A stretch of 64,000 nt of DNA from Bacillota bacterium (lineage in GTDB: Bacteria > Bacillota > Negativicutes > CTSoil-072), in assembly GCA_017889545.1 (NCBI GenBank), contig JAGFZV010000011.1, positions 17,247 to 81,246 of the forward strand, in the 5' to 3' direction. Below the pieces are notes generated by a model. It did not search any database, was not told the origin of the DNA, and saw only the letters and a program-made list of their open reading frames with translations. Both the position numbers and the translations under genes were made by a program. Positions 10,565 through 46,314 of the stretch are shown piece after piece. Numbering within the stretch: the stretch's first letter is position 1; every line of letters begins with the position of its first letter.

Positions 10565-11941
10565 TCATCCAAAATAGCGACCCCAAAAATAAGCAAACAA
10601 TATTCCTTCCCCAAAGAGCAGTGAACTATAAACCCAGTTCCACGAAATAGAAATATCCATCGTCCGGCAATTGAGGAACTTGGAAAGCATCAGGACCATG
10701 CCCGCAAAAGGCGATACGATATAGGAAATCGATCCTCCCAATGCCAGGCATAACGCAATGGAAATCGCAGGAATGGGCAGTTGCAAGGAAGTAAGGATAT
10801 GACCAAACATCACAATCGAAATAAAAGGATGAATTCCGATGATCGCACATAGGATCAGCAAAACCGGAATTACTGCTATGGCATAAATTCCTACCGCATT
10901 CGCTCCGGCTTGCAAATACGGCTGAAGCAATGCGAGCAAACCGGATTTTTGCAGGGCTGTTGAAAAAATCCCCATCGATATGAATAATGGCGCTAAATCG
11001 ACCGTTTTTAAAAGATCTTTGTTCCAATAATTCTGTATTGTTTTTGCGAAACCAGGTTGTTTAACAAAAAAGCCGATCCAGAGCAAAACGACAATTGCGC
11101 CGGCAACCATGATTCGATTGGCAGGTGAAGCACCAAAATTAATTTTTTCTAAAAACAGGATGAAAATCAAAAGCCCCAGCACCACAGCCATAACAGGAAC
11201 CGCCTTCTTACTGACGAACGCTGCACTTGCCTGAGATTTGCCAACAGGCTCTTGTGCAAAATTCATTTTATCTGATACGTGATATTTTTTCTCCAGACAG
11301 CAAGAAGTCGCAATGCCGATTATGCTCAAAATCATACTGGGAATAAGGAGTTCACTCCACTTAACCCCAGTTGCTTGAATAACCAGCATCACATTGATTG
11401 CCCCGGGAGCCCATAAAACAACCAGTCCGAAACCGCGTGTGACTGCAGCTGAAATAAACCGTTCATACTGCGATATCCTGCCTTTCAGCGTATCTCCCAA
11501 TAATGAAACCATGACCGGTATAACGCCAAAACTCAAGATACTCGCAAGGATGTGGCTAACGATGGTAGCGAAAAGAAAAAGCGCATTTTCTCCTGTAAAC
11601 GATTTGGTTAACCAATTTCGCACTGCCAAGTGAACATTACCCAATTGAATGGGAATCGAGTATAATTGCATGATAGCCAATATTGAGATAAGACTTGTCA
11701 TAGAAACGACTGCAGCGATCCATACCGATGACGGCTGCTGAAAAAAAAGCAGCAACCCTATACCGAGAAATAAAAACACGATCGTAATTTTTTTAAACCC
11801 TTTGCCCATCAGGGGGAGACTCGAGAAGAGCACGGTAACGGCAGCAGCAAAAACGGCTGGAGTTAAATCAATTGGTATAAGCGGCATAAAGAATTGCAAT
11901 GCAGCTAAAGACAATATGGAAATTTTACAAAAATAATACAT
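10565..11941 (-). CDS. Polytopic membrane protein, probable transporter
   Basis: 458 aa, about 12 hydrophobic segments, RBS ggaggagagg; family not recognised. Confidence 0.7.
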   Translation of the reverse strand: MYYFCKISILSLAALQFFMPLIPIDLTPAVFAAAVTVLFSSLPLMGKGFKKITIVFLFLGIGLLLFFQQPSSVWIAAVVSMTSLISILAIMQLYSIPIQLGNVHLAVRNWLTKSFTGENALFLFATIVSHILASILSFGVIPVMVSLLGDTLKGRISQYERFISAAVTRGFGLVVLWAPGAINVMLVIQATGVKWSELLIPSMILSIIGIATSCCLEKKYHVSDKMNFAQEPVGKSQASAAFVSKKAVPVMAVVLGLLIFILFLEKINFGASPANRIMVAGAIVVLLWIGFFVKQPGFAKTIQNYWNKDLLKTVDLAPLFISMGIFSTALQKSGLLALLQPYLQAGANAVGIYAIAVIPVLLILCAIIGIHPFISIVMFGHILTSLQLPIPAISIALCLALGGSISYIVSPFAGMVLMLSKFLNCRTMDISISWNWVYSSLLFGEGILFAYFWGRYFG

Positions 11942-11971
11942 TGCACGCCTCTCCTCCCTATGAAAATTTTT

Positions 11972-12001
11972 AAGACCCCGCGCCGTTAAGGCCGGGGTCT
12001 T
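11972..12001. other. GC-rich hairpin between the Mo-enzyme gene and the transporter gene
   Basis: aagaccccg...cggggtctt; no clear U-tract on the sense (minus) strand. Confidence 0.6.
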
Positions 12002-12010
12002 CTTGGCCCA

Positions 12011-14191
12011 TCATGCGCGTGACACACGACAAGGCAAACCGTTATACGCAGAGGTCCCGATCAACGGATCCGCTGTTTCATAGTCGGCATTCGTTAAAAT
12101 GTTGGCGTTGGCAATCCATAGCCCGCCCAAACTGGGTTCAGCCGCTTCCATTTCCGGATACCACCAGCCATATTCCACGCTGATTACCTGATCACACATC
12201 GCAGTAATTTTTACAACAAAGCGGGCTTTCCCTCGCTCCGTTTCGACCCATACCGGACACCCGTCCTCCAACCCCAAGCGGGAGGCCGTACCGGCGCTCA
12301 TTTCCGCCCAAGCTTCAGGGTGAATGGCTCTGAGTGTATCAAACTGGCGAAAACTCGATGCATAATAAGGTTGAAACCGTGCGCCTGTTATCAGTCGCAA
12401 AGGGAAATCCTGCTGCTCTGCAAGCGGAATTTTCGGTACCGGCAAAGGATCATAACCAATCTCTGAAAAAAGTTCGCTGTACAATTCTATTTTCCCGCTG
12501 ATCGTAGCAAAGCCAATCGGTTCTCCGGTCTGCGGATTTATTTGCGCGTATTTTTGATGATCTTCCGGCGGACAATACAGTCCCGTGTCGCAAAAATCAT
12601 TCCAAGTAAAGCCGGTAGGAGCCAATGTCGCTTCCAGGCTGGCAACAAGGCTTTCCCATGGCCACTCGGTTTCTTGTCCAAGACGCAATCCCAGTTCCCG
12701 CCAAAAATCGTAATCAGTCCGACGCTCATAATAGGGTTTAACCGCCTGTCCGCCGCCATAGGCGATATTCGCCGTCCCGGCCTTGGTTTCAAACAACGGG
12801 CGCTCCAAGGCGCCGGCGCTGGGCAAAACATAATCCGCCAGCATAGAAGTTGGCGTTTGGAACAATTCCAAGACGACCAGCAAGTCCAAACTCTTTAATG
12901 CTTCATAGATCAGCTTCGTATCGGCTTGGGTCAACAATGGGTTGGTTGCCATAACAACCAGCGATCGCACCGGATAAGGTTTGTTGGTTACCATTGCTTT
13001 CCAAACCAAGTTCGGTTGCGCAGACGTCAAATACCGCATCGGCAGCCGTTTCCCATGCTGAAGAGTCAACTGCCGAACCCGTTCATACCCTGAATAGGAT
13101 TGCAACGCTAATTCGTTCAGTTGCTTTTGGCGTGCTTCTTGCGGAAACTGCTCACTCAACTCCAAGTCCAGTTCCGGAATGAAGTCCGGCATCTCGTTTA
13201 GATGGGAAGCGCCGGGCAAATCCACGTTGCCGGTAATCGCCTTTAAGATCGCCAACGCATGATGGGTTGGAACACTGTCACAGCCAATTTGATCAATGCC
13301 CCGCCCCGAAAACAAAGTCGCCGGGGCGCTTTGCGCATACAATCGCGCCGCTTGGACAATTACGCCTGCTTCAATGCCGGTAATTTTTTCTACATATTTA
13401 GGGGTGTAAGAAGCGACATGTTCGATCAAACGCTCAAACCCATGGCACCAGTTTTTTACAAACTCGGCATTATACAGCCGTTCCGTAATGATGACGTGCA
13501 ACAATCCAAGCGCTAAAACACTATCCGTTCCCGGCCGCACCGGCAGCCAGAGAGTGGCCAATTCCGCAGTTCGCGTTCGCCTTGGATCCACCACAATGAT
13601 CGGCTTGCCCGTCTTCCTAAACCGTACCACTTCTCGCCATAACAAGGAATTATCCGACTCTGACGGATTTACACCCCAGAACATTGCACAGGTTGTATTC
13701 TCTGTGTCCAACTCACTTTCCATTGGCCAGCCAAAAATCAACGTATTGAGCCAAATCCCTGGGTTCCAACAGATCTGGCCAATTCCCATATTGTTTGGAC
13801 TGCCAAACAGGTTCATAAAGCGATGTAATGGCCAATAAACAGCATGAGGCCCTCCGATGCAGGTCGCCAGCATCTCCGGCCCATACCGTTCCTTAAGGGA
13901 CTGCATTTTTTCGGCAATTTCATCCATTGCCTGCTCCCAAGTAATTTGCTGCCATTGTCCGCTGCCGCGTTCGCCTACCCGTTTCAGCGGGTAATTAACC
14001 CGCTTGGGGTGGTCAATAAATTCCGGCGCTAAACGCCATCGATAACAGCCGCGTTGAATACTTTCGTCGCCGGGATATTGAGTAGGATCCGGGTGAACTG
14101 CTTTAACTTGTCCGTTTTCAGTCACTGCCATTAATCCGCACTGATAACCGCAAAAACGACAGTTCGTTTTAAGAAGTTGTTCTTCTGCCAT
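12011..14191 (-). CDS. Molybdopterin oxidoreductase catalytic subunit (DMSO reductase family, acetylene-hydratase-like clade), paralog B
   Basis: CRFCGYQC...C cluster motif, RFMNLFGSPN, GQICWNP (Cys ligand), DPRRT, ADYVLP, GWWYPE; no Tat signal. Confidence 0.88.
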   Translation of the reverse strand: MAEEQLLKTNCRFCGYQCGLMAVTENGQVKAVHPDPTQYPGDESIQRGCYRWRLAPEFIDHPKRVNYPLKRVGERGSGQWQQITWEQAMDEIAEKMQSLKERYGPEMLATCIGGPHAVYWPLHRFMNLFGSPNNMGIGQICWNPGIWLNTLIFGWPMESELDTENTTCAMFWGVNPSESDNSLLWREVVRFRKTGKPIIVVDPRRTRTAELATLWLPVRPGTDSVLALGLLHVIITERLYNAEFVKNWCHGFERLIEHVASYTPKYVEKITGIEAGVIVQAARLYAQSAPATLFSGRGIDQIGCDSVPTHHALAILKAITGNVDLPGASHLNEMPDFIPELDLELSEQFPQEARQKQLNELALQSYSGYERVRQLTLQHGKRLPMRYLTSAQPNLVWKAMVTNKPYPVRSLVVMATNPLLTQADTKLIYEALKSLDLLVVLELFQTPTSMLADYVLPSAGALERPLFETKAGTANIAYGGGQAVKPYYERRTDYDFWRELGLRLGQETEWPWESLVASLEATLAPTGFTWNDFCDTGLYCPPEDHQKYAQINPQTGEPIGFATISGKIELYSELFSEIGYDPLPVPKIPLAEQQDFPLRLITGARFQPYYASSFRQFDTLRAIHPEAWAEMSAGTASRLGLEDGCPVWVETERGKARFVVKITAMCDQVISVEYGWWYPEMEAAEPSLGGLWIANANILTNADYETADPLIGTSAYNGLPCRVSRA

Positions 14192-14211: not shown

Positions 14212-15513
14212 TTACTTGCTCTTCCTTTTCCCATCAATATCAGTCAATTGGAACACACAAAATGGAACAATATGGCCGTCCGGCCCTGTAACCGTCATAC
14301 TGCATTCTCTAAGTTTTTTTAGATCAAAATTCATCGCATCCATAAAATTCATCATAACAATCGACAAGCCTGGCTCCAATTCCGGAAACATTTTGTCGGC
14401 AAGATCAGGAAACACCGACCCTTGCGGGCTGTCCGAATCAAAATTATTAATATATTCTTGAGGAGTGATCATGGAAGTTAACGGCTTAATCACGCCTTGA
14501 TCCTCAATAAGGTATGTAGCCGCATCACATAGCGGATGCGAACAGCCCAGAGGCCAAAAGTCGTAAGGCTTCAAAATTCCATTGCTCTGTTCCGCCAGCA
14601 TAAACGCCACATTGCCAATTGTTAAACGTTGTTCCGGAACAACATCAAACCGGCCGGATCCAAACGCCGGCTGGTAAGCAATACCCGCAATCACATCCCG
14701 ATTTTTCAATGCAAATTCCAAGACGGCGCCCATTTGGTCATCGTTGATCCCTGAGATCACCGTCATGGCAAGAACGACCTGAACACCGGCTGCTCGGCAG
14801 TTTTCAATCGCCTGTAATTTCATCGGCAGTATATCCGCGCCACGGATTGTCTGATAAACCTCATTGGTCATACCGTCAAACTGCAGATAAACTCCACTGA
14901 TCCCGGCTTCTCTCAACCGCGCCAAATAAGCTGGGTCCTGCGCGATTACCATTCCGTTAGTATTGATTTCAATCGCTATAAAACCAATTTGTCTTCCCAA
15001 TGCGACAATTTCCGGTAAGTCTTGCCGGGTTGTAGGTTCTCCGCCCGTCAATTGAATACTGGTTAACGGACCGGTTTTCGCTAAAATGTCTTTATACATC
15101 GCTTCAAAAACCGCCATGTCCGGATCCGGCGGGGCGGATGCCTGTACTTCGCCTGCTGCCATAAAACAAACCGGACAACGCAAATTACACTTTTGTGTCG
15201 TTTCAAACTCAACTAAAGTAGGATGCCTCAAATGCGCTGAACATAACCCGCAATCCTGGGGACAGCCTTGCAGAGAAGGAGTAGGCTGCGATGGCCGAAC
15301 GTACGGGAATTGGAAACCTTTCATCCATTGATAGTGGTCGACATCCGGCCACAGATAGGCTGTAAACGGTCCATGCTCCGGACATGTTTTTTCCATGTAC
15401 ACAGCTTTGCCTTTAGTAACGATTTCTGCTTCAATAACATTCAGGCAGACCGGGCAAACGCTTTTCGTCGTGTCCAGGACATCATTTTTCACAGTATTTT
15501 CAGCTGATTGCAT
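14212..15513 (-). CDS. Radical SAM protein, MJ0619/Tes-like family
   Basis: CPVC..CPEHG, CPQDCGLCSAH, CNLRCPVC SAM motif, GGEP, C-terminal REC...IVPFC. Confidence 0.8.
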   Translation of the reverse strand: MQSAENTVKNDVLDTTKSVCPVCLNVIEAEIVTKGKAVYMEKTCPEHGPFTAYLWPDVDHYQWMKGFQFPYVRPSQPTPSLQGCPQDCGLCSAHLRHPTLVEFETTQKCNLRCPVCFMAAGEVQASAPPDPDMAVFEAMYKDILAKTGPLTSIQLTGGEPTTRQDLPEIVALGRQIGFIAIEINTNGMVIAQDPAYLARLREAGISGVYLQFDGMTNEVYQTIRGADILPMKLQAIENCRAAGVQVVLAMTVISGINDDQMGAVLEFALKNRDVIAGIAYQPAFGSGRFDVVPEQRLTIGNVAFMLAEQSNGILKPYDFWPLGCSHPLCDAATYLIEDQGVIKPLTSMITPQEYINNFDSDSPQGSVFPDLADKMFPELEPGLSIVMMNFMDAMNFDLKKLRECSMTVTGPDGHIVPFCVFQLTDIDGKRKSK

Positions 15514-15645: not shown

Positions 15646-16569
15646 TTATTTATTCCATGCTTTAAGGAACGCTTCATTCCCCTTCGGCAATCTGGAACGA
15701 TATTTTTGTTCGCCCGGGAACCAGGTACGGTCTTCACCGCCACGAACAACCAGCATACGCATCAGAGCGCCGCCCAACAGCACTAACGCTGCGCCGACTG
15801 CCTGGAGGCTTGGTGAAGACGACAAGGATAACACTAACGGCGCCAAGGTCCCGAATAACAGGAACCCATATTGGAAGCTAGAGGAAAGATCCCCATTGAT
15901 CCATCGTTGCGTGGCAATTGATTCCGACGTAGTGCCACCGCTTTTCTTCACCCAAATATAGCCAAACCACAACAGCAGTTGAAAAGCCAGTAATCCAGCC
16001 GTGAACTTGGGGAACATTCCCAAAACATCAGTCAGTGTAGACGGCGGGAAAACAAAACCAGCTAAGCTGTGCGCTGCAAAACCGGTAACCAGTGAAGAAA
16101 GCAAAAACAGGATCATAATCCCAGGTCCATGCCAGAACGGACGGCCTTTATGGCGTCCCAGCAAAATGCCAGGGTAAGTAGCTACTACTAAACCAGTGAT
16201 GAAACAAAGGGCCGCCAGAACTTTACGAGCGAATACCCAACTGCTCCAGAAAAACATATCGAGACCAAACGTAGCATACACGAGACCAAACGTAATCGCA
16301 AAGGACATAAACCAAGCGCCGGCAGTCAGGATCGCCTTCGGATTCACAAATACCCGCAAGGCCTGAAACGGACGGCCCAACTCCAAAATCAGCAGGGATG
16401 ATCCGATGCCGATGAATACCGGTCCAAGCACATTCCCAAGCAGAGAGGTTCTTCCCTCGCCGACAAACAAATCCAAGAGCCCAACAATAACAAGCATTCC
16501 GCCGCCCATTCCCGCAAAGAAGAAATCGACAGCCAACATCCAGCCCCAAACATCATGCTTTTGACTCAT
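15646..16569 (-). CDS. NrfD/PsrC-type membrane anchor subunit
   Basis: WGWMLAVDFFFAGMGGG, LILELGRP, YPGILL, about 8 TM helices. Confidence 0.88.
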   Translation of the reverse strand: MSQKHDVWGWMLAVDFFFAGMGGGMLVIVGLLDLFVGEGRTSLLGNVLGPVFIGIGSSLLILELGRPFQALRVFVNPKAILTAGAWFMSFAITFGLVYATFGLDMFFWSSWVFARKVLAALCFITGLVVATYPGILLGRHKGRPFWHGPGIMILFLLSSLVTGFAAHSLAGFVFPPSTLTDVLGMFPKFTAGLLAFQLLLWFGYIWVKKSGGTTSESIATQRWINGDLSSSFQYGFLLFGTLAPLVLSLSSSPSLQAVGAALVLLGGALMRMLVVRGGEDRTWFPGEQKYRSRLPKGNEAFLKAWNK

Positions 16570-17129
16570 CAGAGCTTCACCTCCGAATCGACAATATAAA
16601 ACACGTACGGTTCCGTGTTCAGTTCTCCCAATAAGCGTACTGGGTAGCCATTGTTTACCAATTTGTAAACCTCACTGGTAGGATCATCCATATCGCCAAA
16701 AATACGCGCCTTTTGGTGACAGGTCTTTACGCAATGCGGCAGCTTGCCTTCATCAACCCGGTCCATACAGAAATTACATTTCTGTATCGTTCCCTTTTCA
16801 TGATTGGGGACCCGCGCTCCATACGGACAAGCCATAACACAAGCTTTACAGCTGATACATTTTTTTTCTTCGACGAAAACAATTCCATCCGGACGCTGTT
16901 GAGACGCGCCGGTAGGACAAGCATCCACACAAGGCGAATTATCGCAATGCATGCATATGAGAGGCAGGTTCGTCATACGAACGTTAGGAAAAACTCCGGT
17001 AGGTCCAACCGTTACTACTGGATTATAGATCATGTCCAGAGGCAATTCATTGTGCACTCTGCAAGCAACCGTGCACGAATGGCATCCGACACACCGCCGC
17101 GTATCCATAACCATTGCATAGCGTGCCAT
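16569..17129 (-). CDS. 4Fe-4S dicluster electron-transfer subunit (DmsB/PsrB-like)
   Basis: CVGCHSCTVAC, CMHCDNSPCVDACP, CISCKACVMACP, KCNFC...CVKTC. Confidence 0.92.
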   Translation of the reverse strand: MARYAMVMDTRRCVGCHSCTVACRVHNELPLDMIYNPVVTVGPTGVFPNVRMTNLPLICMHCDNSPCVDACPTGASQQRPDGIVFVEEKKCISCKACVMACPYGARVPNHEKGTIQKCNFCMDRVDEGKLPHCVKTCHQKARIFGDMDDPTSEVYKLVNNGYPVRLLGELNTEPYVFYIVDSEVKL

Positions 17130-17130
17130 C

Positions 17131-19371
17131 TTATTTCGCCTCCTTTTCATTCTCTGCCGTTACTTTATATACTTTGCATAATAAGCCACGGTTCGCCCAA
17201 GAGCCGCTCATAGGATCACAATCATCATCATCACAACTGGTCAAAATATTCGTGTTTGATTCCAAACAACCGCCCAGTTCCGGATCACGCATATCGCGTT
17301 CCGGGTACCACCAGCCACGCGGGGTGAAAATGACACGCGGGTCAATGGCTTGCGTCAAATTGGCTTTTTGCTTGATCCGGCCGCGCTTGGTTTCAATCCA
17401 AACCCAATCGCCCTCTTCAATCGACAATTTGGCTGCTGCCGCCGGGTTCATGCTCATGTAAGGCTCGTGGCTGAGGAACCGCAATGTCTTAATTTGGAAA
17501 TGTTCGGAATGATGGTATGGCATGTGACCGCCGCCGGTGGTCAGCACAAACGGATATTCCGCCGCAATTTCCGGATCATCTGTTTCATTTTCTGCCGGCC
17601 CGATGTATGGCGGAAGAGGCGGATAGCCTAATGCTTCCAGCGTGCTGGAATATAACTCCACTTTTCTCGAAGGAGTGGCAAACCCAATTCGCTTGTATTT
17701 CTGATATTCACGTTCTGGAAAATGGAAACGGTGGTTTTCAACAAATTCATCGTAACTTTCCACCCCGTAGCCCAGCGGTTCAATTTTAGCAAAATAAGCG
17801 TCTTCTACGGTTTCCCACGGCCACATTTCCTTTTGTCCCAGCTTGACACCTAAATCGCGCCAGAAATTATAATCGTTGCGGCGTTCATACATTGGCTGGA
17901 TGGCCCGTTGCGATGCCAGCAAAAAGTCAGCACACCCGTAGGAACTGGTAATTGTCGGCCGTTCCAGCGCGCCGGCAATCGGCAACACGTAATCCGAAAG
18001 CATTGCTGTCGGAGTCAGCCAATATTCACAGGTAACCATGAACTCAACAGCCTTCAACGCTGCCAATGTCAGTTTCGTTTCACCATAAGAATTGATCGGA
18101 TTGGTGGCCGAAACCAAAAGCGCTTTGACCGGATATGGTTTTTCCGTCAGGATCGCCCGGAATACAGATGGCGGATGGGCTTCACACATCCACTCGGCGG
18201 TCGGAGCTTTTCCCCACACTTCTTTCGTCAATTCAGCGATGCGGCTATAGCCCGGCCAGGTAACCATTTTAAATTTATCGGAACCAATTTGTTTGGCTTT
18301 CTGCTCTTCCGGCAACTGGTCATTCGCTTCCATTTCTTCGTCCGTGACATACTCAAGACTGGGACCGGTCAAAAGGTCAGAACCAGGAACATCCAAATTA
18401 CCGGTAATCGCGCGCAATAAAGCACGTGCGTGCATCGCTGCTCCGGCCGGTTTGCCGATTTGGTCAATGGACGTACCCCATTGAATATTTCCCGGCTTAT
18501 TGGAAGCATACATGATCGCACTTTCACGGATCTGCTCTTCGGTCAGCCAAGTCAGCGGCGCTGCCCACTCCGGTGAAAAGTCCGCAACATGTTCTGCCAA
18601 TTCACCAAACCCAACGCACCATTCGTCCGTAAATTCCGGATCGAACAGTCCTTCATAAATGATGACATGCAGCCAAGCCAGCGCCAGTGCCAAGTCCGAT
18701 CCAGGACGAATCGGCAGCCACATATCCGCTTTGGCGGCTGTTTCTGAATAACGAGGATCTATAACGATCAGTTTGAGGCCTTTTTCTTTTAATTCCATAA
18801 TATGATGTATTTCCGGCATGCCGGAAACGCCCGGATTTTGCCCCCACAAAACCAGACAGCGGCTGCTGCCCAAGTCCAAGTCAAACGGGCACCATCCGTA
18901 GATCGCCGTTTCTACCATGAATGTAGGAATCCAGCACAGATGAGAGTTGTGAAATCCATTGGGGCTGCCAAACAAGTTCATAAATCTCCGGCGGGCCCAG
19001 TCGTCTGTTCGCTGAGTTCCGCCAGCCGTAGCAACAGCCTCTGCACCAAATTCATCACGAATATTGGCAAGCTTCTCGGCAATTTCCGTCAACGCCTGAT
19101 CCCAAGAAATTTCTTGCCATTGTCCGGCACCGCGTTCACCAACCCGTTTCAACGGAAAATTTACCCGCGCCGGATGGTCAAGATGGTCCATGGCAATATT
19201 TCCCCGGCAGCACAATCCGCCCTGATTAGTAGGAAAATCAGGATCTCCCTCGATATCAAGGACTTTGCCGTCTTTTACATAAGCCAGTACCCCACAATTC
19301 TGGTGGCAAAAGTAACAGGCGGATTTTTTCACTTGAATACCTTCTTGTTGTAAATCAATATTCTTGCTCAT
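17131..19371 (-). CDS. Molybdopterin oxidoreductase catalytic subunit, paralog A
   Basis: CYFCHQNC...C, RRFMNLFGSPN, HLCWIP (Cys ligand), HHSEH, GWWYPE; RBS gggagg; no Tat signal; start at ATG 19371. Confidence 0.9.
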   Translation of the reverse strand: MSKNIDLQQEGIQVKKSACYFCHQNCGVLAYVKDGKVLDIEGDPDFPTNQGGLCCRGNIAMDHLDHPARVNFPLKRVGERGAGQWQEISWDQALTEIAEKLANIRDEFGAEAVATAGGTQRTDDWARRRFMNLFGSPNGFHNSHLCWIPTFMVETAIYGWCPFDLDLGSSRCLVLWGQNPGVSGMPEIHHIMELKEKGLKLIVIDPRYSETAAKADMWLPIRPGSDLALALAWLHVIIYEGLFDPEFTDEWCVGFGELAEHVADFSPEWAAPLTWLTEEQIRESAIMYASNKPGNIQWGTSIDQIGKPAGAAMHARALLRAITGNLDVPGSDLLTGPSLEYVTDEEMEANDQLPEEQKAKQIGSDKFKMVTWPGYSRIAELTKEVWGKAPTAEWMCEAHPPSVFRAILTEKPYPVKALLVSATNPINSYGETKLTLAALKAVEFMVTCEYWLTPTAMLSDYVLPIAGALERPTITSSYGCADFLLASQRAIQPMYERRNDYNFWRDLGVKLGQKEMWPWETVEDAYFAKIEPLGYGVESYDEFVENHRFHFPEREYQKYKRIGFATPSRKVELYSSTLEALGYPPLPPYIGPAENETDDPEIAAEYPFVLTTGGGHMPYHHSEHFQIKTLRFLSHEPYMSMNPAAAAKLSIEEGDWVWIETKRGRIKQKANLTQAIDPRVIFTPRGWWYPERDMRDPELGGCLESNTNILTSCDDDDCDPMSGSWANRGLLCKVYKVTAENEKEAK

Positions 19372-19503
19372 GTTGCCTCCCTTCAGGCGTTCCCAGATTA
19401 CCAATTTTCTTTCCAAAGCTTGACTATCCCGACTTGCCAATGCAAGTTATAGCTTTTCGCCCGGACCTCAATTCGGTTGTTCGCGTCGCCTGAACCTTAT
19501 TCA

Positions 19504-19520
19504 TGCAATAAACGTGCCAG
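19504..19520 (-). promoter_or_regulatory. sigma54 -24/-12 promoter
   Basis: CTGGCACGTTTATTGCA, matches TGGCACG-N4-TTGC. Confidence 0.9.
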
Positions 19521-19605: not shown

Positions 19606-19622
19606 CGTGTCAAAATGATACG
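19606..19622. promoter_or_regulatory. Putative enhancer-binding-protein site (UAS)
   Basis: CGTGTCAAAATGATACG, identical to 22180-22196; pseudo-palindrome GTRTCA-WWW-TGAYAC. Confidence 0.7.
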
Positions 19623-19669: not shown

Positions 19670-19697
19670 TTTTGCGATTGCTTTATCATTTTAAGAT
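19670..19697. promoter_or_regulatory. 28-bp upstream motif, copy 1
   Basis: TTTTGCGATtgctttaTCATTTTAAGAT; related copies at 41712 and 46287. Confidence 0.65.
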
Positions 19698-32560: not shown

Positions 32561-32574
32561 AATTCTTCGTCCTT

Positions 32575-37390: not shown

Positions 37391-37428
37391 TCTTTCCGTT
37401 TCCCTTCAATCCACTGATTTAGAACCGC

Positions 37429-38379: not shown

Positions 38380-38440
38380 GGATGCTTTCCTCCTGTTGCT
38401 CTTATTTGAACAAAATTATAATACGTTCGGTATTGATCCT

Positions 38441-38501
38441 ATTGTATAACGAAAGCCTATCGATTGCAAGGCTTTTTTGCTTTGCAATCGATAGGCTTTC
38501 G
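38441..38501 (-). promoter_or_regulatory. sigmaA promoter overlapped by an inverted-repeat operator
   Basis: TTGCAA-N17-TACAAT (38469 to 38441); 20-bp perfect IR 38450-38469/38482-38501 with core GATTGCAA-N12-TTGCAATC. Confidence 0.8.
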
Positions 38502-38524
38502 AATTCAGCGAACGTGAATATATT

Positions 38525-39328
38525 TTAAAATTTGCTTTTCACCAATTTTTCTTCCGGAAGAGAAAATTTAAAATCCGGCTCGTGTTTTCGCAATTCTCTC
38601 GCTTCATCGCCAATCACAACTTCAAACCAGACGCCTTCCACCCTGCGCCCCGAAAACGCAGGACCAAAGCGAACAAAGATCGAATCGTCCCAAGAATAGA
38701 TTTCTTCCAATGAAGGTTCTAAAACACGAAGCTTTAGCTGCCCATAAGAATACCGGGTATTCTCCAGAGACAATTGCCGCATTAGTTCCGGGATAGAAAG
38801 TTCGGTTAGACCCTTCGATCTCCATGGCCAAATGATATTAAAAACAGCTAACGTATGCTTGCCTTTATATTGCAATTGCTTCGCCAGCTGGTATTCGGCA
38901 GCATTCGGAGCAAAATAGGCCAGCAAAGGCAGCATTTTCTCAGCAAACTGAAATGTGATTGTCTTTTCATCGTACTCGATTGCCTGAAACCACAAGGTAC
39001 GTGTCAATTTTTTATTCATCTCATCGTATAATGAAACGCCTTTTTTCAATACCTTTGCGATTTCATTTGTCAGATGGAAATAGATATCTTCCTGGCGGAA
39101 ATCACAAATCGTTAAAAAATCGCCGATTGCCATCGTGTATTCTGTTCTATTGCACTCAAGTTGGTCTACCTTATGTCGTAAAGAGATTGCCGCAGTAATC
39201 ATTTTCTGCTGCAACTCCGTCAGCGGATCCCGCCTGCCGATAAACCCATCCAACCGTATGATCTGATTTGGTTTCACCGTCAATTCTTCCGGTTTAAGAG
39301 CCGCAGCGACTAACTTCTCAAAATCCAT
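38525..39328 (-). CDS. Rep_3 family (plasmid RepB/RepE-like) winged-helix initiator homolog
   Basis: LTELQQKM, WFQAIEY...FQF...LL, LSIPELMRQL, YGQLKLRVLEPSLEEI, GRRVEGVWFEV; RBS gaggtg; start at ATG 39328. Confidence 0.72.
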   Translation of the reverse strand: MDFEKLVAAALKPEELTVKPNQIIRLDGFIGRRDPLTELQQKMITAAISLRHKVDQLECNRTEYTMAIGDFLTICDFRQEDIYFHLTNEIAKVLKKGVSLYDEMNKKLTRTLWFQAIEYDEKTITFQFAEKMLPLLAYFAPNAAEYQLAKQLQYKGKHTLAVFNIIWPWRSKGLTELSIPELMRQLSLENTRYSYGQLKLRVLEPSLEEIYSWDDSIFVRFGPAFSGRRVEGVWFEVVIGDEARELRKHEPDFKFSLPEEKLVKSKF

Positions 39329-39347
39329 GGAGTTCACCTCATGAAAC

Positions 39348-39396
39348 ATTGTACAGTGTGCTTCTATTGATTGCAAGCAAAATCTAATTTGCAATC
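39348..39396 (-). promoter_or_regulatory. Second copy of the promoter/operator module
   Basis: TTGCAA-N17-TACAAT (39376 to 39348); GATTGCAA(39369-76)-N12-TTGCAATC(39389-96). Confidence 0.8.
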
Positions 39397-39409
39397 GCGA
39401 TAGAAACAC

Positions 39410-39444
39410 AAACTGCACTGAGAATACACTTCCCAGTGCAGTTT
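39410..39444 (-). terminator. Terminator of the MFS gene
   Basis: aaactgcactg-N13-cagtgcagttt, 11-bp IR followed by a U-rich tract on the minus strand. Confidence 0.65.
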
Positions 39445-39501: not shown

Positions 39502-40866
39502 TTAGCGAGCTGGTTTTTCCGTTACATCGGCAAGCTGGTCAAGAGATTTGCCTTTGGTTTCTCTCTTAATGAAGACAAAGGCTGCCAATCCACCGATCAC
39601 TGCCGGAATAATATAGAACAGGAACGACATCTGCGGTCCCAGTTGCATTGCCATGATAGCCCCGGCAACGATCGGAGCCAGAGCCCCGCCAAGCCGGCCA
39701 AACGCTTGGCACCAAGCAACGCCCGTATTTCTAAACTCGGTTGGGTAACTTTCTGCCATCAGAGGCTGTACCGCCGTGATCGCATAGTTAATCGCAAAGC
39801 CCATGAAAATATTGGCTGCCAGAATGGCGTAGAAGCTGCCGCCGACAAAGGCCATAATCAGAATGGATGCGCCGCCAATGAAATAGCTCATAATCAGATT
39901 TGGTCTGCGGCCTATCTTTTCAGCGACAAAGCCGGTCGAACAGTTAGCAAAAATTGCAGCCGCATTATTAGCGATTGCCAAGCCATAAGCCGAAGTGAGC
40001 TTCAATCCTTTTTCCAACATTAAGGAAGGCAGCCAGGCATTGATGCCGTAAACGATGAAGCATCCGCAGAAGTAAGTAATCCAGACGCCCGCAGTTGCCA
40101 TCCGATATTCCTTGGAAAACAAAGCTTTCGGTCCAGCCACTTTGGGAACCGGCGGAACAGACAATAAGTTTGGATCCCAATTTGTTGATTTTCCAGTGGC
40201 CGTTTTCTCAATATATTTAAGAATTTCGACCGCTTCTTCCTTCCGCCCTTTATTGGCGAACCAATAAGCCGATTCATGCATTTTGAAGAAGATGAAAATT
40301 GAATATAAGAAAGGAATACCGCCGATCAAATAACAAATTCTCCATCCGTATTTCGCTACGAGCAGCGTAGGAATAAGACCGCCCAAAACCCAGCCAACGA
40401 TCATCCACGCCATACCGAAGGTGATAAAGAGAGCACGGTATCGGGTCGGTGTGCACTCGGAAAAAATCGTAGTAACTACCGGAATACAAGCACCTAGTCC
40501 AATTCCGGCGCAAACCCGGAAAAAGGCGAACTGTTCAAAACTTTGGGCAAAGTAGATCGGAATACTTAACAGGGAGTACATGGCGATAGCACCCACCAAG
40601 GTTTTTTTCCTGCCGATTTTGTCGGAAACAATACCGGAGATTGCACCGCCGAGGATCAAGCCGAAAAGACTCCAGGAAGACAAACTGCCTGTTTGTACTT
40701 TGGTCAAGCCCCATTCAGCCGATATTTGCGGCATGGTATAGGAAACGATCATATAGTCATAGCCATCGAACACCATGGACATACCGAGGAAAAAAAATAC
40801 AGCCCAGGTAAACTTGTTGACCCCCAATGAATCTATTACTTCAGAGATAGTAAAGTTCTTACTCAC
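39502..40866 (-). CDS. MFS transporter, aromatic acid:H+ symporter-like
   Basis: FDGYD, SDKIGRKK, FRVCAGIGLG, SECTPTRYR, ESYPTEFRNTG, GRLGG; GTG start after gaggagg. Confidence 0.82.
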   Translation of the reverse strand: MSKNFTISEVIDSLGVNKFTWAVFFFLGMSMVFDGYDYMIVSYTMPQISAEWGLTKVQTGSLSSWSLFGLILGGAISGIVSDKIGRKKTLVGAIAMYSLLSIPIYFAQSFEQFAFFRVCAGIGLGACIPVVTTIFSECTPTRYRALFITFGMAWMIVGWVLGGLIPTLLVAKYGWRICYLIGGIPFLYSIFIFFKMHESAYWFANKGRKEEAVEILKYIEKTATGKSTNWDPNLLSVPPVPKVAGPKALFSKEYRMATAGVWITYFCGCFIVYGINAWLPSLMLEKGLKLTSAYGLAIANNAAAIFANCSTGFVAEKIGRRPNLIMSYFIGGASILIMAFVGGSFYAILAANIFMGFAINYAITAVQPLMAESYPTEFRNTGVAWCQAFGRLGGALAPIVAGAIMAMQLGPQMSFLFYIIPAVIGGLAAFVFIKRETKGKSLDQLADVTEKPAR

Positions 40867-41120
40867 GCACATTCCTCCTCAAAATATAAATAATACCGTT
40901 GGTATTTCATAAATTGAACATTATTCGTGATCAATTGAACTTACAAAAGGCCGACTATTTGTGTCAAAATAGTAAGGACTCTGTATCTGTAATTTTTCAG
41001 CGAACTATTTGTCTCATATGCAACGGGATCCGGAATAAGAAATTGCTCATCTGACCATGAGTAACTCTTGTATCTGGATGCCTTTTTCTTTATCAAAGCG
41101 ACTTGCTGTTGGCTCTGATA

Positions 41121-41291
41121 TTAAGAAGGAGATTTCGGTGTTTCTGGTGTTTCCGCTTTATCTGCGTATTGCGTTAAATCCACTTTACAGAAAGGGCATT
41201 TTTTTTGATAAACCCCTCCGATAGGAACCAATTTTTTGCCGCAATTAGGACAAACTTGAGTTTTTGCTGCTCCTGCTGGTCTAAAGCACAT
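41121..41291 (-). CDS. 56-aa zinc-ribbon/rubredoxin-like peptide (not in ORF track)
   Basis: RBS aaaggagg; MCFRPAGAAKTQVCPNCGKKLVPIGGVYQKKCPFCKVDLTQYADKAETPETPKSPS; two CxxC. Confidence 0.8.
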   Translation of the reverse strand: MCFRPAGAAKTQVCPNCGKKLVPIGGVYQKKCPFCKVDLTQYADKAETPETPKSPS

Positions 41292-41541: not shown

Positions 41542-41558
41542 TGCAATAATCGTGCCAT
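41542..41558 (-). promoter_or_regulatory. sigma54 -24/-12 promoter
   Basis: ATGGCACGATTATTGCA. Confidence 0.88.
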
Positions 41559-41711: not shown

Positions 41712-41739
41712 TTTTGCGATCACAGTTTCATTTTAAGAT
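41712..41739. promoter_or_regulatory. 28-bp upstream motif, copy 2
   Basis: TTTTGCGATCACAGTTTCATTTTAAGAT. Confidence 0.65.
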
Positions 41740-41889: not shown

Positions 41890-42228
41890 GTGGATGATTT
41901 TTACATGTTTACCACAAAGATTGGCGAAAACAACTTGAGCGTGACCTTTGACGAAGCGGTACAAAAAGATCTGAAAAGCTCCTATGTGAACCCTGCTGAA
42001 ATATATAAGCTGATTTTAAACTTCGCAGGCACTCTGCTTGCGGTAAAAAAAGATGAAGAGTTTTATATTGCCAACGAAGAAACCGGCGCCAGTATGGTTC
42101 TTAGTATGAAATGGACGTCTGAAAAAGACGTAACGGTCCATGTCATGAAAGCAGAGAATATTGTTGACGAGAAAAACAAGCGCGTAGATTTGACGCCTCA
42201 TTCGGAAGAAACCCCGCCTGCAAATTAA
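41890..42228 (+). CDS. Hypothetical protein
   Basis: 112 aa; sigmaA promoter TTGATT-N17-TATAAT at 41836-41864; RBS gaaagg; terminator follows. Confidence 0.7.
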   Translation: MDDFYMFTTKIGENNLSVTFDEAVQKDLKSSYVNPAEIYKLILNFAGTLLAVKKDEEFYIANEETGASMVLSMKWTSEKDVTVHVMKAENIVDEKNKRVDLTPHSEETPPAN

Positions 42229-42718: not shown

Positions 42719-43033
42719 ATGTGCTGGTCCTGCAATCCTTATTGCGGCGGATGCAAACCGCCCAAAGAAAGGCCGGTTAGATGCCGTGCCTGCAAGACGT
42801 TCAATTTCCGTGATGAGAGCAATAAATGCAAAAATTGCGGTGCAGTTTTGCCCGATCCCATCAAACGTCCCACCGTAATGTGCCTGCAAATTGGAAAGCT
42901 ATGCGCCAATCCTTGCAATAGACACAAATCCGCTCCGGATGACGGCATTCTTAAAACCTGTCATTTGCACACTCCGCCCAAAGAAGAAAATTCGACCGAA
43001 AAACCACACGGCAACGAACCTTGCGATCCTTGA
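42719..43033 (+). CDS. Cys-rich small metalloprotein
   Basis: CWSCNPYCGGC, CRAC, CKNC, C...CANPC...C; promoter TTGACC-N17-TATAAT at 42635-42663; terminator at 43042-43077. Confidence 0.75.
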   Translation: MCWSCNPYCGGCKPPKERPVRCRACKTFNFRDESNKCKNCGAVLPDPIKRPTVMCLQIGKLCANPCNRHKSAPDDGILKTCHLHTPPKEENSTEKPHGNEPCDP

Positions 43034-43256: not shown

Positions 43257-43598
43257 CTAGACTACCGGAGCAAACATCATTACACGGGGGCCCTTTTCAG
43301 CCATTTTCTTGGCTAGTTCATCCAGCGGACCGTATTCCATGCATTGACCCAGGCAGTGAAGAACGCAAGATGGTACACCTTCTCTTGCCACACGATCTTC
43401 ACAAAGATCGCAAAGTTGAGTAGGAACCGCAATATAGTTCCATTCCCATTTATCCCCGGTCACTTGGAACGGGCCTACTTCAGTCAATTTAATGCCCCAC
43501 TTGCCATGAGGAATTTTATGCTCGTTCTTACAAGCAACTTCGCAGCTATGGCAACCTGTGCAATATTGGTAATCAATCAATAATCCGTTACGTGCCAT
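43257..43598 (-). CDS. Short 4Fe-4S subunit of the Mo-enzyme
   Basis: GLLIDYQYCTGCHSCEVAC, CDLC...CVLHC. Confidence 0.85.
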   Translation of the reverse strand: MARNGLLIDYQYCTGCHSCEVACKNEHKIPHGKWGIKLTEVGPFQVTGDKWEWNYIAVPTQLCDLCEDRVAREGVPSCVLHCLGQCMEYGPLDELAKKMAEKGPRVMMFAPVV

Positions 43599-43639: not shown

Positions 43640-45907
43640 TTACGCTTTAAATCCGACATCGGATTCTAACGAATCGACTCTGTAAACCTTGCAGATCATT
43701 TGTTTGAACGGTGCGCCGAAACCAAGTTTTCCAATGTGTTTGTGCGGCACAAGGGTATTAATATTCGATTCCCAAACGCCAAACAGACTCGGTTCTTCCG
43801 CTTTCTTCTCCGGATACCACCAGCCGTGAGTTGCATGAACGACTTTAGGATGGATAGTCGGCGTCAGATGCGCTCTTTCTTTTGCTTTACCGAACATGTT
43901 TTCCAAGCAAACCCAGTCGCCCTCTTTGATACCGAGTGCGGCAGCAGTCTCCGGATGGATTTCCATTTCCGGCCAAGGATCGATTTCACGCAATGTCGGA
44001 ATTTGTCTGTGCTCCGAATGGAAGGAAGTGAATTTTCTAGCTCCGGTTGTAAGGATCAAAGGATATTCTTTGAACAGCTCCGGAGTGCTGAACGGGCTGT
44101 ACGGTGGCTCTTTGAAGTACGGAAGCGCATCATCGCCCCATGCTTCGAACAGCGTTGAGCTCAACTCAACCATCCCCGTTACAGTATTAAAGCCAGGGTC
44201 GCCGTCGCCGCGCAATTGGCCGGTCTCATATTTTCGATAAGTATATTTCGGTTGATATACACCCATCTCTCTCAAGTCGTTGAAGTCAATGCCGAGTTCC
44301 GGTTTCAGCTGTTTGCTGAAGAAGTCTTCAACACTGTCAAACGGCCACATATTCGGGTGAAGTTTTTTGCCCAATTCAATGCAGACTTCGATATCGGATT
44401 TGCAATCGCCAGTTTCAAACGCTTTGTTGATCGCGCCCAGGAACACAGCGTTACGTCCGAAGTGTGTGACAACAACGCCATCATGCTCAGCAAACGTCGG
44501 CAACGGCAGGAAGATATCGCCAAATGCCATCGCAGTCGGAGTCATGAAGCAATCTTGCACCACGTTGAATTCCAAAGATTTCAATGCACGGTACCATCTG
44601 TCAGGCTGCGCCGAACAGGTAGGAGTAATGAAGTTGCTGCTGTTGAACCAGCCCATCCGCAGTCTGTATGGTTTGCCTGATTCAAGAGTATCCAACGTTT
44701 CATCCGGGTGAGTAGTAGCCATAGCAGTACTCAATGCAGGCCATTCTTTGGCGCCGATGCGTTTGTCCCAAAGCTCTTCGGACAGATTGCTCCGGGTTTC
44801 TACACGCCATTTGCCAAGCAATGCAGCAGGTGGCCCTAAGGTGATGCCGCCAGGCACGTCGAGGTTACCGGTAATAGCGGACAGCGAAAGGATCGCATGG
44901 CCGAGTTGTACGCCGTTCGGGTTTTCGTCAACAGCCAGACCCCACTGAATAGCGGAAGGCTTGTTGGTGGCGAATTCGCGAGCAACTTCTCTGATTTTTT
45001 CTGCAGAAACCCAAGTCAGGTCTGCAACTTTTTCAGGCGGATATTCCTGAACGCGTTCTTTCAGCTCATCAAAGCCATAGCACCAGTTGTCAACGAAATC
45101 ATGATCATAAAGATCTTCGTTGATGATAACATTGAGTAAGCCCAGTGCGAGAGCGGTATCGGAGCCAGGACGCAATTGCAGAACATATTCTGCTCTGGTG
45201 CCGAGCCAAGTAATCCGTGGGTCAACACAGATCATCTTCGTGCCGCGTTTCATCATGTCGATCAGGGAGTGACCGAAGAATCCATCAGGATTGGACATTA
45301 ATGGGTTTTTGCCCCATTCCATGATGTATTTCGGCAATACATAGTTCGGATTGTCATAACGATCCGGGTAAGTACCGGCAAAGTCAATTTCCGGATAGCC
45401 TGCACCCAGAATGTAGTCGGTAATCGAGCAACGAGGACCGTAGCAGGACCAGCCGCTCAACGGATAGCATACGTTAGGAGTACCAAGTGATGCGAAGCCC
45501 AGCGGATAGTAATACAAGCATGCTTCACGGCCGGTACCGCCGAATACAACGATTGATTCAGCGCCATGATCTTCCTTCAATTGTTTCACTTTAGGAACGA
45601 TGATATCCCACGCTTCATCCCAGGAAATCTTAGTCCATTTATCTTTACCGCGATCTTCAGGAGCACGCTTCATTGGGGATAAAATACGTTGCGGATGGTT
45701 TACAAATTCAGGAAGTGCTAAACATCTGACGCACAACCGGCCATTCGTAATAGGATGTTCAGGATCTCCCTCTACCTTTACAAGCTTACCGCCTTTAACG
45801 GTCAATTTCATTCCGCATCCAACCGGATGGTCTCCTGGCGGTGACCAACCGCAGGTTCTGACTGTGTAAGAGCCATCTTCGTTTTGCGTTTTCCACTCTT
45901 TTTTCAT
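43640..45907 (-). CDS. Molybdopterin oxidoreductase catalytic subunit, paralog C (catechol-dehydroxylase-like)
   Basis: CGWSPPGDHPVGC...GRLCVRC, GGTGR, WSCYGPR, FHSEHRQIP, HGWWYPE; no Tat signal. Confidence 0.9.
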   Translation of the reverse strand: MKKEWKTQNEDGSYTVRTCGWSPPGDHPVGCGMKLTVKGGKLVKVEGDPEHPITNGRLCVRCLALPEFVNHPQRILSPMKRAPEDRGKDKWTKISWDEAWDIIVPKVKQLKEDHGAESIVVFGGTGREACLYYYPLGFASLGTPNVCYPLSGWSCYGPRCSITDYILGAGYPEIDFAGTYPDRYDNPNYVLPKYIMEWGKNPLMSNPDGFFGHSLIDMMKRGTKMICVDPRITWLGTRAEYVLQLRPGSDTALALGLLNVIINEDLYDHDFVDNWCYGFDELKERVQEYPPEKVADLTWVSAEKIREVAREFATNKPSAIQWGLAVDENPNGVQLGHAILSLSAITGNLDVPGGITLGPPAALLGKWRVETRSNLSEELWDKRIGAKEWPALSTAMATTHPDETLDTLESGKPYRLRMGWFNSSNFITPTCSAQPDRWYRALKSLEFNVVQDCFMTPTAMAFGDIFLPLPTFAEHDGVVVTHFGRNAVFLGAINKAFETGDCKSDIEVCIELGKKLHPNMWPFDSVEDFFSKQLKPELGIDFNDLREMGVYQPKYTYRKYETGQLRGDGDPGFNTVTGMVELSSTLFEAWGDDALPYFKEPPYSPFSTPELFKEYPLILTTGARKFTSFHSEHRQIPTLREIDPWPEMEIHPETAAALGIKEGDWVCLENMFGKAKERAHLTPTIHPKVVHATHGWWYPEKKAEEPSLFGVWESNINTLVPHKHIGKLGFGAPFKQMICKVYRVDSLESDVGFKA

Positions 45908-46116
45908 TATCTCACCAACCCTTTCAAGAAATTCTAAAAAAAGCTAAATTGTCAATCCTAGTTTCCCTAAACCATAACACCTCCCTTAACGCAGTCGGAC
46001 CAGATTACCCATTTACTCTCCAAGGTGTAATGCATTTTTCGTAGCCCTTGATGAAATGAGCCTATATCTTAATAGTCCGGATATCAATTTGGTTTCATAT
46101 CACCACCTAGTAATTA

Positions 46117-46133
46117 TGCAATAAGCGTGCCAA
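46117..46133 (-). promoter_or_regulatory. sigma54 -24/-12 promoter
   Basis: TTGGCACGCTTATTGCA. Confidence 0.9.
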
Positions 46134-46286
46134 CCTGTTAAAACTTGGACAAACCGCCGTAATACCAGTATTATTCCGGTTTTATCATTCGAATCAAATA
46201 AGACGCCTGATCTTTTTTTGAGATGAATACATTCCTGCATATAACTTCATAAAGCAGGAAAATAACAGAAATATCGCATAATCCTT

Positions 46287-46314
46287 TTTTGCGATCACAA
46301 TATCATTTTAGGAA
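46287..46314. promoter_or_regulatory. 28-bp upstream motif, copy 3
   Basis: TTTTGCGATCACAATATCATTTTAGGAA. Confidence 0.65.

Follow-up and report, generated by a model that had tools for sequence, protein, structure and literature searches.

The 64,000-nucleotide window analysed here (contig JAGFZV010000011.1 of assembly GCA_017889545.1, positions 17,247 to 81,246 of the forward strand) belongs to a Negativicutes lineage with few sequenced relatives, and its source genome is a 3.27-Mb, 96%-complete assembly. Positions 10565-46314 of the window, referred to below as the island, carry genes that lie nearly all on the minus strand and encode three molybdopterin oxidoreductase catalytic subunits (catA, catB and catC) related to acetylene hydratase (AH), together with an accessory set that includes a Tes-like radical SAM enzyme, DUF2064 proteins and a DUF169-ferredoxin. 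Molybdoenzymes of the AH type perform a hard reaction, the oxygen-free removal of phenolic hydroxyls, and influence what becomes of dietary polyphenols, drugs and neurotransmitters in the gut. In this analysis, the accessory set was found to be tied to the catA and catB orthogroups and not to the whole AH/catechol-dehydroxylase clade. No description of this cluster was found in the literature searched.

Distribution and linkage of the cluster

Gene families were assigned by Pfam and NCBIfam profile scans of the open reading frames (ORFs) of the window. These scans bear out the gene list of an earlier note on this DNA for all the families it named, and they add an ABC importer, an ArsS-family gene and a Rep3-like gene at 34819-39418 that were not on that list. 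Relatives of the island were searched for by the radical SAM enzyme alone; an alignment-based search returned more than 575 hits, and the best 80 loci among them were examined. About 80 loci, spread over at least six phyla, hold the clustered set, which consists of catA with its Fe-S and NrfD subunits, the CCG protein, catB, DUF2064, the Tes-like radical SAM enzyme, the DUF169-ferredoxin, GNAT and MBL. The earlier note had made such co-occurrence its test beforehand, and the prediction held.

Most of the best 80 loci belong to Eggerthellaceae and other Coriobacteriia (Eggerthella, Gordonibacter, Adlercreutzia, Raoultibacter, Ellagibacter and Denitrobacterium), where the operon order is (MBL) catA-FeS-NrfD-CCG-catB-DUF2064-radical SAM-ferredoxin/DUF169(-GNAT), and the remainder to Peptococcaceae, Desulfitobacterium, Geobacter/Pelobacter, Geopsychrobacteraceae, Chloroflexota and Acidobacteriota. 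Among the 47 loci with enough flanking sequence, catB is present in 40, catA in 38, DUF2064 and DUF169 in 37 each and CCG in 34, and NrfD follows the Fe-S subunit in 37 of the 47. The immediate neighbours of the radical SAM gene in the loci examined are DUF2064 upstream (58 times) and DUF169 downstream (57 times). The full gene set was also found in metagenome-assembled genomes (MAGs) of Selenomonadales, Trichloromonas and Syntrophorhabdales, with identities of 55-66% for the radical SAM enzyme and up to 85% for catC, and partial copies lie on short contigs of a Peptococcaceae MAG and of a close Negativicutes relative (radical SAM 86% identical). Named cultured carriers are Desulfitobacterium chlororespirans, Desulfuromonas acetoxidans, Malonomonas rubra, Geobacter strains and Anaeroselena agilis. 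Within the Negativicutes the island occurs in 3 of 61 genomes, which belong to two families, and this patchy distribution indicates lateral spread.

The coupling is striking in 151 evenly sampled Coriobacteriia genomes, where orthologues of the radical SAM enzyme and of catB occur in the identical eight genomes and none of the other 143 is discordant. The DUF2064-radical SAM-DUF169 trio stands alone in six genomes, five of which encode a catB orthologue elsewhere, the sixth being a 1.7-Mb MAG. In one locus catB and DUF2064 are fused (L074:2-2425), and in three others GNAT is fused with MBL (L089:5176-6399, L094:12952-14181 and L096:7518-8804). It is on the synteny, the Coriobacteriia profile, the unlinked trios accompanied by catB and the catB-DUF2064 fusion that the coupling of the accessory module to catA/catB rests.

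The earlier note had linked the accessory set with the AH/catechol-dehydroxylase clade, and that link stands for the catA/catB orthogroups and fails for the wider clade. Of 251 Desulfobacterota genomes, 70 encode AH-clade enzymes, and the radical SAM orthologue is present only in Trichloromonas, the sole genome with catA/catB orthologues. An accessory set serving the entire clade was therefore rejected.

In the Desulfuromonas acetoxidans-like and Malonomonas rubra loci (L141 and L142), a Flavin_Reduct (PF01613) gene is located between MBL and MoaA. Homologues of this flavin reductase were detected in 14 loci, and none is present in this window.

The three molybdoenzymes

For all three catalytic subunits the best solved structure is AH of Pelobacter acetylenicus (2e7z), with 448 bits and 36% identity for catA (17131-19440, minus strand; likely start ATG at 19371), 374 bits and 34% for catB (12011-14191, minus; Molybdop_Fe4S4, Molybdopterin and Molydop_binding in Pfam) and 276 bits and 30% for catC (755 aa; 43640-45907, minus). 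The next solved structure, Psr, scores 242, 230 and 197 bits, respectively, and the AH-clade membership proposed before is thus supported by scores far above those of other solved structures. With AH they share the N-terminal [4Fe-4S] domain, the fold binding bis-molybdopterin guanine dinucleotide (bis-MGD), the Cys ligand and the cytoplasmic location. The metal-ligand Cys of AH (MYMC-IGN) is aligned with that of catA (NSHLC-W) and of catB (GQIC-W). In AH the second cluster Cys is followed by Asp13 (C-x2-C-D), which is replaced by His in catA (CYFCH) and by Gly in catB (CRFCG); therefore, these two are not acetylene hydratases in the strict sense.

A tree was built from AH, seven paralogues from the source genome, 28 paralogues from Gordonibacter sp. 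28C and orthologues from other phyla. In it, catA and catB are sister orthogroups within the AH subclade, each with 100% support, and catC nests in a radiation of signal-less enzymes of about 750-830 aa from Gordonibacter sp. 28C, with which it has an N-terminal WSxPG(C/D)H...GC motif in common. Therefore, the description of three enzymes of one clade with one accessory set keeps its first part, the AH relatedness of all three, and loses its second, considering that catC belongs to a different, Gordonibacter-type subclade. The catA orthologues are 58-80% identical across phyla, compared with 36% to AH, and the catC orthologues 81-85% (Firmicutes, Desulfuromonadales).

AH is a stand-alone, tungsten-dependent enzyme, whereas each of the three subunits described here has partners. 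In the case of catA these are a four-cluster Fe-S subunit (DsrO/TtrB/NrfC-like; 16569-17150, minus; Fer4_11, with NCBIfam TtrB and DsrO matches of about 1e-51 that fall under the cut-offs) and an NrfD-type membrane quinol anchor (15646-16569, minus; PF03916, 79 bits); catB is accompanied by the CCG protein and the DUF169-ferredoxin, and catC by a 113-aa ferredoxin encoded behind it (43257-43598, minus). These redox partners imply redox turnover. Inspection of the N-termini of the three catalytic subunits and of the Fe-S subunit showed no twin-arginine motif, so export of catA was rejected. Judged by their sequences, all three enzymes are cytoplasmic, with catA anchored to the membrane and facing the cytoplasm.

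The Eggerthella dehydroxylases (Dadh, Hcdh and Cadh) belong to the same broad AH-related bis-MGD class, and the combination of a catalytic subunit, a four-cluster Fe-S subunit and a membrane anchor is the same as in catA. They also depend on extra genes for activity, which is a likeness to the island (PMC7028382, PMC11887054). However, they are exported by the twin-arginine (Tat) pathway (PMC7028382), are about 1000-1200 aa long and are controlled by membrane LuxR-type regulators, and the Dadh accessory genes (DadhD-I) encode a helicase-domain protein, a hypothetical protein, a TorD-like chaperone and membrane ferredoxins (PMC11887054). The island has no Tat signal, is associated with a sigma-54 activator and has a wholly different accessory set; the Pfam and NCBIfam scans detected neither a helicase, a TorD-like chaperone or membrane ferredoxins nor a LuxR-type regulator in it.

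The soluble dehydroxylases of the Gordonibacter type (Cldh, Dodh and Gp Hcdh) are closer to catC, which is likewise signal-less and has one small partner, in its case the ferredoxin. Gp Hcdh is a Tat-less, two-subunit enzyme of 770 aa (PMC11585353), and strain 28C is rich in 'smaller Cldh-like enzymes' (PMC7028382). The largest survey of Eggerthellaceae reductases took in signal-peptide-bearing enzymes only. The differences are that catC is placed under sigma-54 regulation and that its orthogroup is found in Firmicutes and Desulfuromonadales. Owing to its nesting in the tree and its match to the published size and subunit pattern of Gp Hcdh and the 28C enzymes, catC with its ferredoxin is best read as an enzyme of this soluble kind. 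A fourth AH-clade enzyme of the source genome, 47% identical to catC, is encoded on another contig (C18:11240-13916, locus L144) with a 57%-identical small ferredoxin, and MFS and EamA transporters flank it.

Regulation by sigma-54 and by a molybdenum cofactor riboswitch

The sigma-54 enhancer-binding protein of the island (19898-22057, minus; terminator at 19827-19852) has an N-terminal region of 285 aa without family assignment, followed by PAS, AAA+ and HTH_8 domains; a relaxed-threshold Pfam search of this sensor region also found nothing. Orthologues of the activator adjoin catA in 11 loci, and rpoN is encoded in the source genome. The five -24/-12 promoters that had been proposed along with this one activator were confirmed, four of them as exact TGGCAC-N5-TTGC sites, and all are intergenic and upstream of their operons. 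The exact sites precede the catA operon (19505-19519, minus), the accessory operon that begins with DUF2064a (34627-34641, minus), the zinc-ribbon/MFS2 operon (41543-41557, minus) and the catC operon (46118-46132, minus), and the site with one mismatch precedes MFS1 (22313-22327, plus). The whole 3.27-Mb genome contains 14 exact sites, four of which are located in the island, and about 0.1 would be expected per 64 kb.

The motif YYAAAATGAWA lies 100-180 bp upstream of each of the five promoters, with two copies at catA (19610-19620 and 19684-19694, minus) and one each at MFS1 (22184-22194, plus), the accessory operon (34759-34769, minus), the zinc-ribbon/MFS2 operon (41726-41736, minus) and catC (46301-46311, minus). 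Six of its seven copies in the window are found at these promoters, against 1.07 expected, a count that is descriptive because the motif was derived post hoc. Equivalent sigma-54 promoters are present in related islands of Bacillota, Peptococcaceae, Desulfitobacterium, Geopsychrobacteraceae and Acidobacteriota, and in four loci (L027, L028, L031 and L038) the promoter before catA stands at the matching position; the Coriobacteriia versions of the cluster lack such promoters. The sequence evidence supports the view that the island constitutes a single sigma-54 regulon.

One further exact sigma-54 promoter of the source genome, with two copies of the upstream motif, was found at C18:38213-38227 (minus; locus L143), where the operon encodes a pyridoxal phosphate (PLP) enzyme, an M20 peptidase, an amidohydrolase, RidA and an MFS transporter and adjoins a CBS-PAS sigma-54 activator. 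It was considered as a sixth member of the regulon and rejected, as the operon is unrelated and has its own activator; it is probably a separate regulon for amino-acid-type catabolism.

The second level of control concerns the molybdenum cofactor (Moco). The accessory operon (30313-34547, minus) encodes DUF2064a, the CCG (HdrD-like) Fe-S protein, the DUF169-ferredoxin, GNAT and the PhnP-like MBL, and it is followed by a second Moco biosynthesis set (23822-30114, minus), which consists of a MoCF-domain protein, MoeA, MoaA, MoaC, MobB, MOSC, MobA and, at its end, DUF2064b (23822-24652, minus). Between MBL and the Moco genes lie a Moco riboswitch aptamer (RF01055; 30173-30306, minus), which scores 74 bits against a gathering score of 36 and covers model positions 1-135, and a 14-bp terminator hairpin (30135-30167, minus). 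The aptamer has the P3 stem, which we take to be typical of Moco-sensing forms. The promoter and gene order previously proposed for a continuous operon from DUF2064a to DUF2064b therefore stand, and its continuity does not: since the riboswitch and terminator interrupt it, the Moco genes form, with DUF2064b, a gated unit of their own.

The island Moco genes look canonical in sequence, and they duplicate a housekeeping copy located mainly on contig C30 of the source genome. Considering that this duplicate set lies behind both a sigma-54 promoter and a riboswitch, it would be doubly controlled, by the inducer and by cofactor shortage. The Moco riboswitch occurs at the same junction in four other islands (L025, L110, L028 and L038), in two of them immediately behind the sigma-54 promoter, and Moco genes are also found within six islands (G001, G003, G005, G039, L028 and L038); in Geobacter and Pelobacter loci DUF2064 adjoins MoaC. 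A full-length RF01055 and a terminator before moeA/moaA/moaC/mobAB are features shared with known Moco-riboswitch operons. In contrast to these, the island aptamer is nested inside, or directly behind the sigma-54 promoter of, a regulon of catabolic type, and the gated unit ends in a DUF2064 gene.

A second Moco riboswitch was detected in the window outside the island (60474-60604, minus; RF01055, 68 bits). Downstream of it (55980-59883), a molybdopterin oxidoreductase, a four-cluster Fe-S protein and a cytochrome b561-type subunit form an operon that looks like the formate-dehydrogenase-N type. The Pfam match of the oxidoreductase, an 806-aa ORF, begins at profile position 97, and an in-frame selenocysteine codon may separate the N-terminal part from it. 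Beside this riboswitch is an aldehyde:ferredoxin oxidoreductase (AFOR_N and AFOR_C; 60775-62628, minus), of the tungsten-pterin enzyme family.

The accessory proteins

The radical SAM gene (14212-15513, minus; PF23545 and PF04055) sits between NrfD and catB, inside the catalytic operon. Its product has the zinc-ribbon HMPTM domain at the N-terminus, a core with CxxxCxxC and conserved auxiliary Cys/His motifs, which is the zinc-ribbon plus radical SAM architecture of Tes/GDGT-MAS (7tol) and TrsS. It scores 393 bits with TrsS (NF045646; cut-off 490), 336 bits with Tes (NF045702; cut-off 450) and 274 bits with the GDGT-MAS structure 7tol. It falls about 70 residues short of Tes in the C-terminal region and has no selenocysteine, and it is always paired with molybdoenzymes and not with lipid genes. 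Its orthologues carry the label 'radical SAM protein' or an old pterin-dimethyltransferase label in public databases, and its nearest relatives outside Tes are MoaA enzymes. In four loci of other Negativicutes (L105-L108), Tes-like paralogues 35-37% identical to the island enzyme are encoded within a few kb of CCG-type Fe-S genes and, in two of the four, near MobA or MoCF-domain genes; these paralogues are probably of the TrsS type.

The two DUF2064 proteins are about 51% identical to each other and match the Pfam family with 54.6 and 50.5 bits (cut-off 25.8) and TIGR04282 with 67-68 bits (cut-off 134). An N-terminal K-x-P-x-x-G-x-x-K-T-R-L motif and several Asp residues are invariant. The structure model (predicted local distance difference test, pLDDT, of 94) is nearest to 3cgx (DUF2064), then to FbiD/CofC and then to IspD- and GlmU-type nucleotidyltransferases; as modelled, DUF2064 resembles a nucleotidyltransferase of the CofC/FbiD fold. 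The DUF169 domain was modelled with a pLDDT above 90 across most of residues 11-230, and the model gave no fold match in the PDB; four Cys and one His are invariant in this domain, and the ferredoxin domain is C-terminal here and N-terminal in most orthologues. The CCG protein matches NF045663 with 143 bits, and MBL is PhnP-like according to NCBIfam.

Transporters, the embedded block and neighbouring genes

The last gene of the catA operon encodes a 458-aa polytopic membrane protein (10565-11941, minus), probably a permease, for which no Pfam or NCBIfam match was obtained, even with relaxed Pfam thresholds; it has one 43% paralogue within the source genome and no counterpart in the other islands compared. 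MFS1 (22438-23742, plus) and MFS2 (39502-40872, minus) were assigned by the profile scans, the best family of MFS2 being the aromatic-acid/H+ symporter family AAHS (TIGR00895, 298 bits), followed by MhpT and PcaK, all under their cut-offs. A 56-aa zinc-ribbon protein is encoded in front of MFS2 (41121-41291, minus). The zinc-ribbon and MFS genes are kept beside catC or catA in several phyla, the Desulfuromonas and Malonomonas clusters also have MFS transporters next to them, and an MFS2 homologue stands beside the cluster in an Eggerthella locus (L042). Two conserved small ORFs on the plus strand, of 112 aa (41890-42228; homologues in G005 and G003) and 104 aa (Cys-rich; 42719-43033; homologues in G001 and L056), gave at most a weak Zn_ribbon_3 match in the relaxed Pfam scan.

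The block embedded at 34819-39418 (minus) consists of an SsuA/NMT1-type ABC importer, an ArsS-family radical SAM gene (TIGR04167, 406 bits, over the curated cut-off of 300) and a Rep3-family, plasmid initiator-like gene (38525-39418, minus). The Rep3-like gene is 55-79% identical in three other Negativicutes genomes; two of these (G001 and G005) keep the whole block in their islands and the third (G039) keeps the Rep3-like gene only. An identical sigma-70-like TTGCAA-17-TACAAT promoter precedes the Rep3-like gene and arsS (39376 and 38469). Membership of the block in the sigma-54 regulon was considered unlikely, as it has no -24/-12 site, has its own sigma-70-like promoters and is absent from most islands; judging by these sequences, it is probably not driven by sigma-54.

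Just outside the island are an IlvD-family dehydratase (46534-48222, minus) and two ORFs (48245-50133, minus); none of these genes is kept next to the island in other genomes.

Proposed function

The reading that we favour, although our confidence in it stays a little below even, is that the island is induced for the reductive metabolism of a hydroxylated aromatic acid taken up by the cell and that it includes a maturation and electron-supply module specific for catA and catB. The PAS-containing activator would sense a small molecule, bind the shared upstream motif and fire the five promoters, so that the importers (the aromatic-acid/H+-symporter-type MFS, the second MFS and the 458-aa permease) would be made. 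The catC protein and its small ferredoxin would act as a soluble two-subunit enzyme of the Gordonibacter catechol-dehydroxylase type, catA would be tied through its four-cluster Fe-S subunit to the NrfD quinol anchor at the inner membrane face, and soluble catB would be served by the HdrD-like CCG protein and the DUF169-ferredoxin. With electrons from menaquinol and low-potential ferredoxin, the three enzymes may catalyse stepwise reductive steps of the dehydroxylation type on the imported acid. DUF2064, the Tes-like radical SAM enzyme, GNAT and MBL would form a support module for catA and catB only; DUF2064, radical SAM, DUF169 and CCG would mature or re-activate the active site of these two enzymes or feed electrons to it. 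Extra Moco would come from the duplicated set, transcribed through only when the riboswitch senses cofactor shortage.

In this scheme the gene layout, the regulatory elements, the cytoplasmic location, the placement in the clade and the co-occurrence are shown by the analysis, and the reaction direction, the substrate class and the roles of the accessory proteins are what we infer. A hydroxylated aromatic acid is plausible as inducer and substrate owing to the AAHS-type MFS2 and the placement of catC. The position of DUF2064b inside the riboswitch-gated Moco unit speaks for the module, as does the lack of any TorD/NarJ-type chaperone in the Pfam and NCBIfam scans of the island. Several points weigh against the favoured reading. 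The AAHS score of MFS2 lies under the curated cut-off of 418 bits, and the link of catC to Cldh and Hcdh was drawn from published descriptions, with a tree that holds no characterised dehydroxylase sequence. Several carriers, Malonomonas rubra and Desulfuromonas acetoxidans among them, are not known to use aromatic compounds, and Tes chemistry, which is lipid C-C coupling, offers no precedent for the maturation of an enzyme or cofactor. GNAT, MBL and the flavin reductase of other loci look more like small-molecule tailoring enzymes. Furthermore, co-occurrence by itself cannot tell maturation from a role in the pathway.

That last point leads to an explanation which we hold to be clearly less probable than the favoured one and still the strongest of its competitors, in which the accessory proteins are themselves enzymes of the pathway: DUF2064 would nucleotidylate the compound or an intermediate, GNAT acylate it, the MBL phosphodiesterase cleave it and the Tes-like radical SAM enzyme rearrange or couple it, while catA, catB and catC hydrate or reduce. 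The GNAT-MBL fusions, the PhnP-like nature of MBL, the placement of the radical SAM gene in the NrfD-catB interval of the catalytic operon and the addition of a flavin reductase to the set in Desulfuromonadales and some Coriobacteriia are all consistent with it, and the nearest folds to DUF2064, FbiD and CofC, act on small phospho-acids. However, a CofC-like enzyme needs a phospho-substrate and there is no kinase to make it, and in many Coriobacteriia loci the cluster lies amid housekeeping genes (GlmS, AcpS) without a transporter. The fusion of DUF2064 to catB and its presence in Moco gene strings behind a Moco riboswitch also weigh against this reading. Catechol dehydroxylases are inactive in E. 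coli and active in a Coriobacteriia host (PMC11887054), and this agrees with another proposal, which we regard as unlikely, that the module makes a new cofactor or tailored pterin. Here DUF2064 would add a nucleotide, the radical SAM enzyme would modify the pterin or build a C-C bond, and catB would be the scaffold or first user, as NifEN is for NifDK, so that catA and catB would need a non-canonical Moco. The perfect phyletic coupling in Coriobacteriia, the sister relationship of catA and catB, the MoaA enzymes as closest non-Tes relatives of the radical SAM enzyme and the linkage of the cluster to Moco genes and a Moco riboswitch argue for such a product. The pterin-dimethyltransferase label that JGI gives to the orthologues points the same way, but the pterin-methylase assignment of the archaeal homologue has since been superseded by the Tes function. 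On the other side, the Desulfobacterota with AH-clade enzymes and no module indicate that the clade in general needs no special cofactor, and the presence of MobA and MobB means that ordinary bis-MGD can be made.

It is very improbable, in our judgement, that an organo-arsenic or organo-sulfur compound, entering by way of ArsS and the SsuA-like importer, takes the place of the aromatic acid as substrate of the island. The proposal draws on an ArsS-family match over its curated cut-off beside an NMT1/SsuA-type ABC system, on the conservation of this block in two other Negativicutes islands and on the distant relationship of DUF2064 to TIGR04282, a partner of ArsS. Yet DUF2064 reaches half of the TIGR04282 cut-off, the ArsS/ABC genes have sigma-70-like promoters in place of a -24/-12 site, the islands found in G039, Desulfuromonadales, Peptococcaceae and Coriobacteriia do not contain them, and no arsM or ars efflux genes are present among the window ORFs examined.

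Conclusions

Among the members of their class, catA and catB are the best conserved, and they are always accompanied by a radical SAM enzyme and by three proteins that are poorly understood; the sampled genomes of Eggerthella, Gordonibacter and Adlercreutzia contain this set as well. What this window adds is a form controlled by sigma-54 and a riboswitch, a third enzyme of the Gordonibacter type and transporters, and the comparison adds a test of specificity against the wider clade, the gene fusions and a list of cultured carriers. As such carriers exist, direct tests of inducer and substrate, and of what the accessory genes do, are possible. The possible pay-offs are a new anaerobic reaction of aromatic compounds, a further role for Tes-type radical SAM enzymes, or an account of why heterologous expression is difficult for some enzymes of this class. 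We consider it unlikely, albeit worth stating, that the radical SAM enzyme, DUF2064 and the apparently novel-fold DUF169 Fe-S protein form a new maturation line, by way of a tailored pterin or a radical-installed modification of the active site, for catA and catB. If true, molybdoenzymes would have a second, non-canonical route of biogenesis, one present in Eggerthellaceae as well as in anaerobes scattered over at least six phyla and placed here under the combined control of sigma-54 and a Moco riboswitch.

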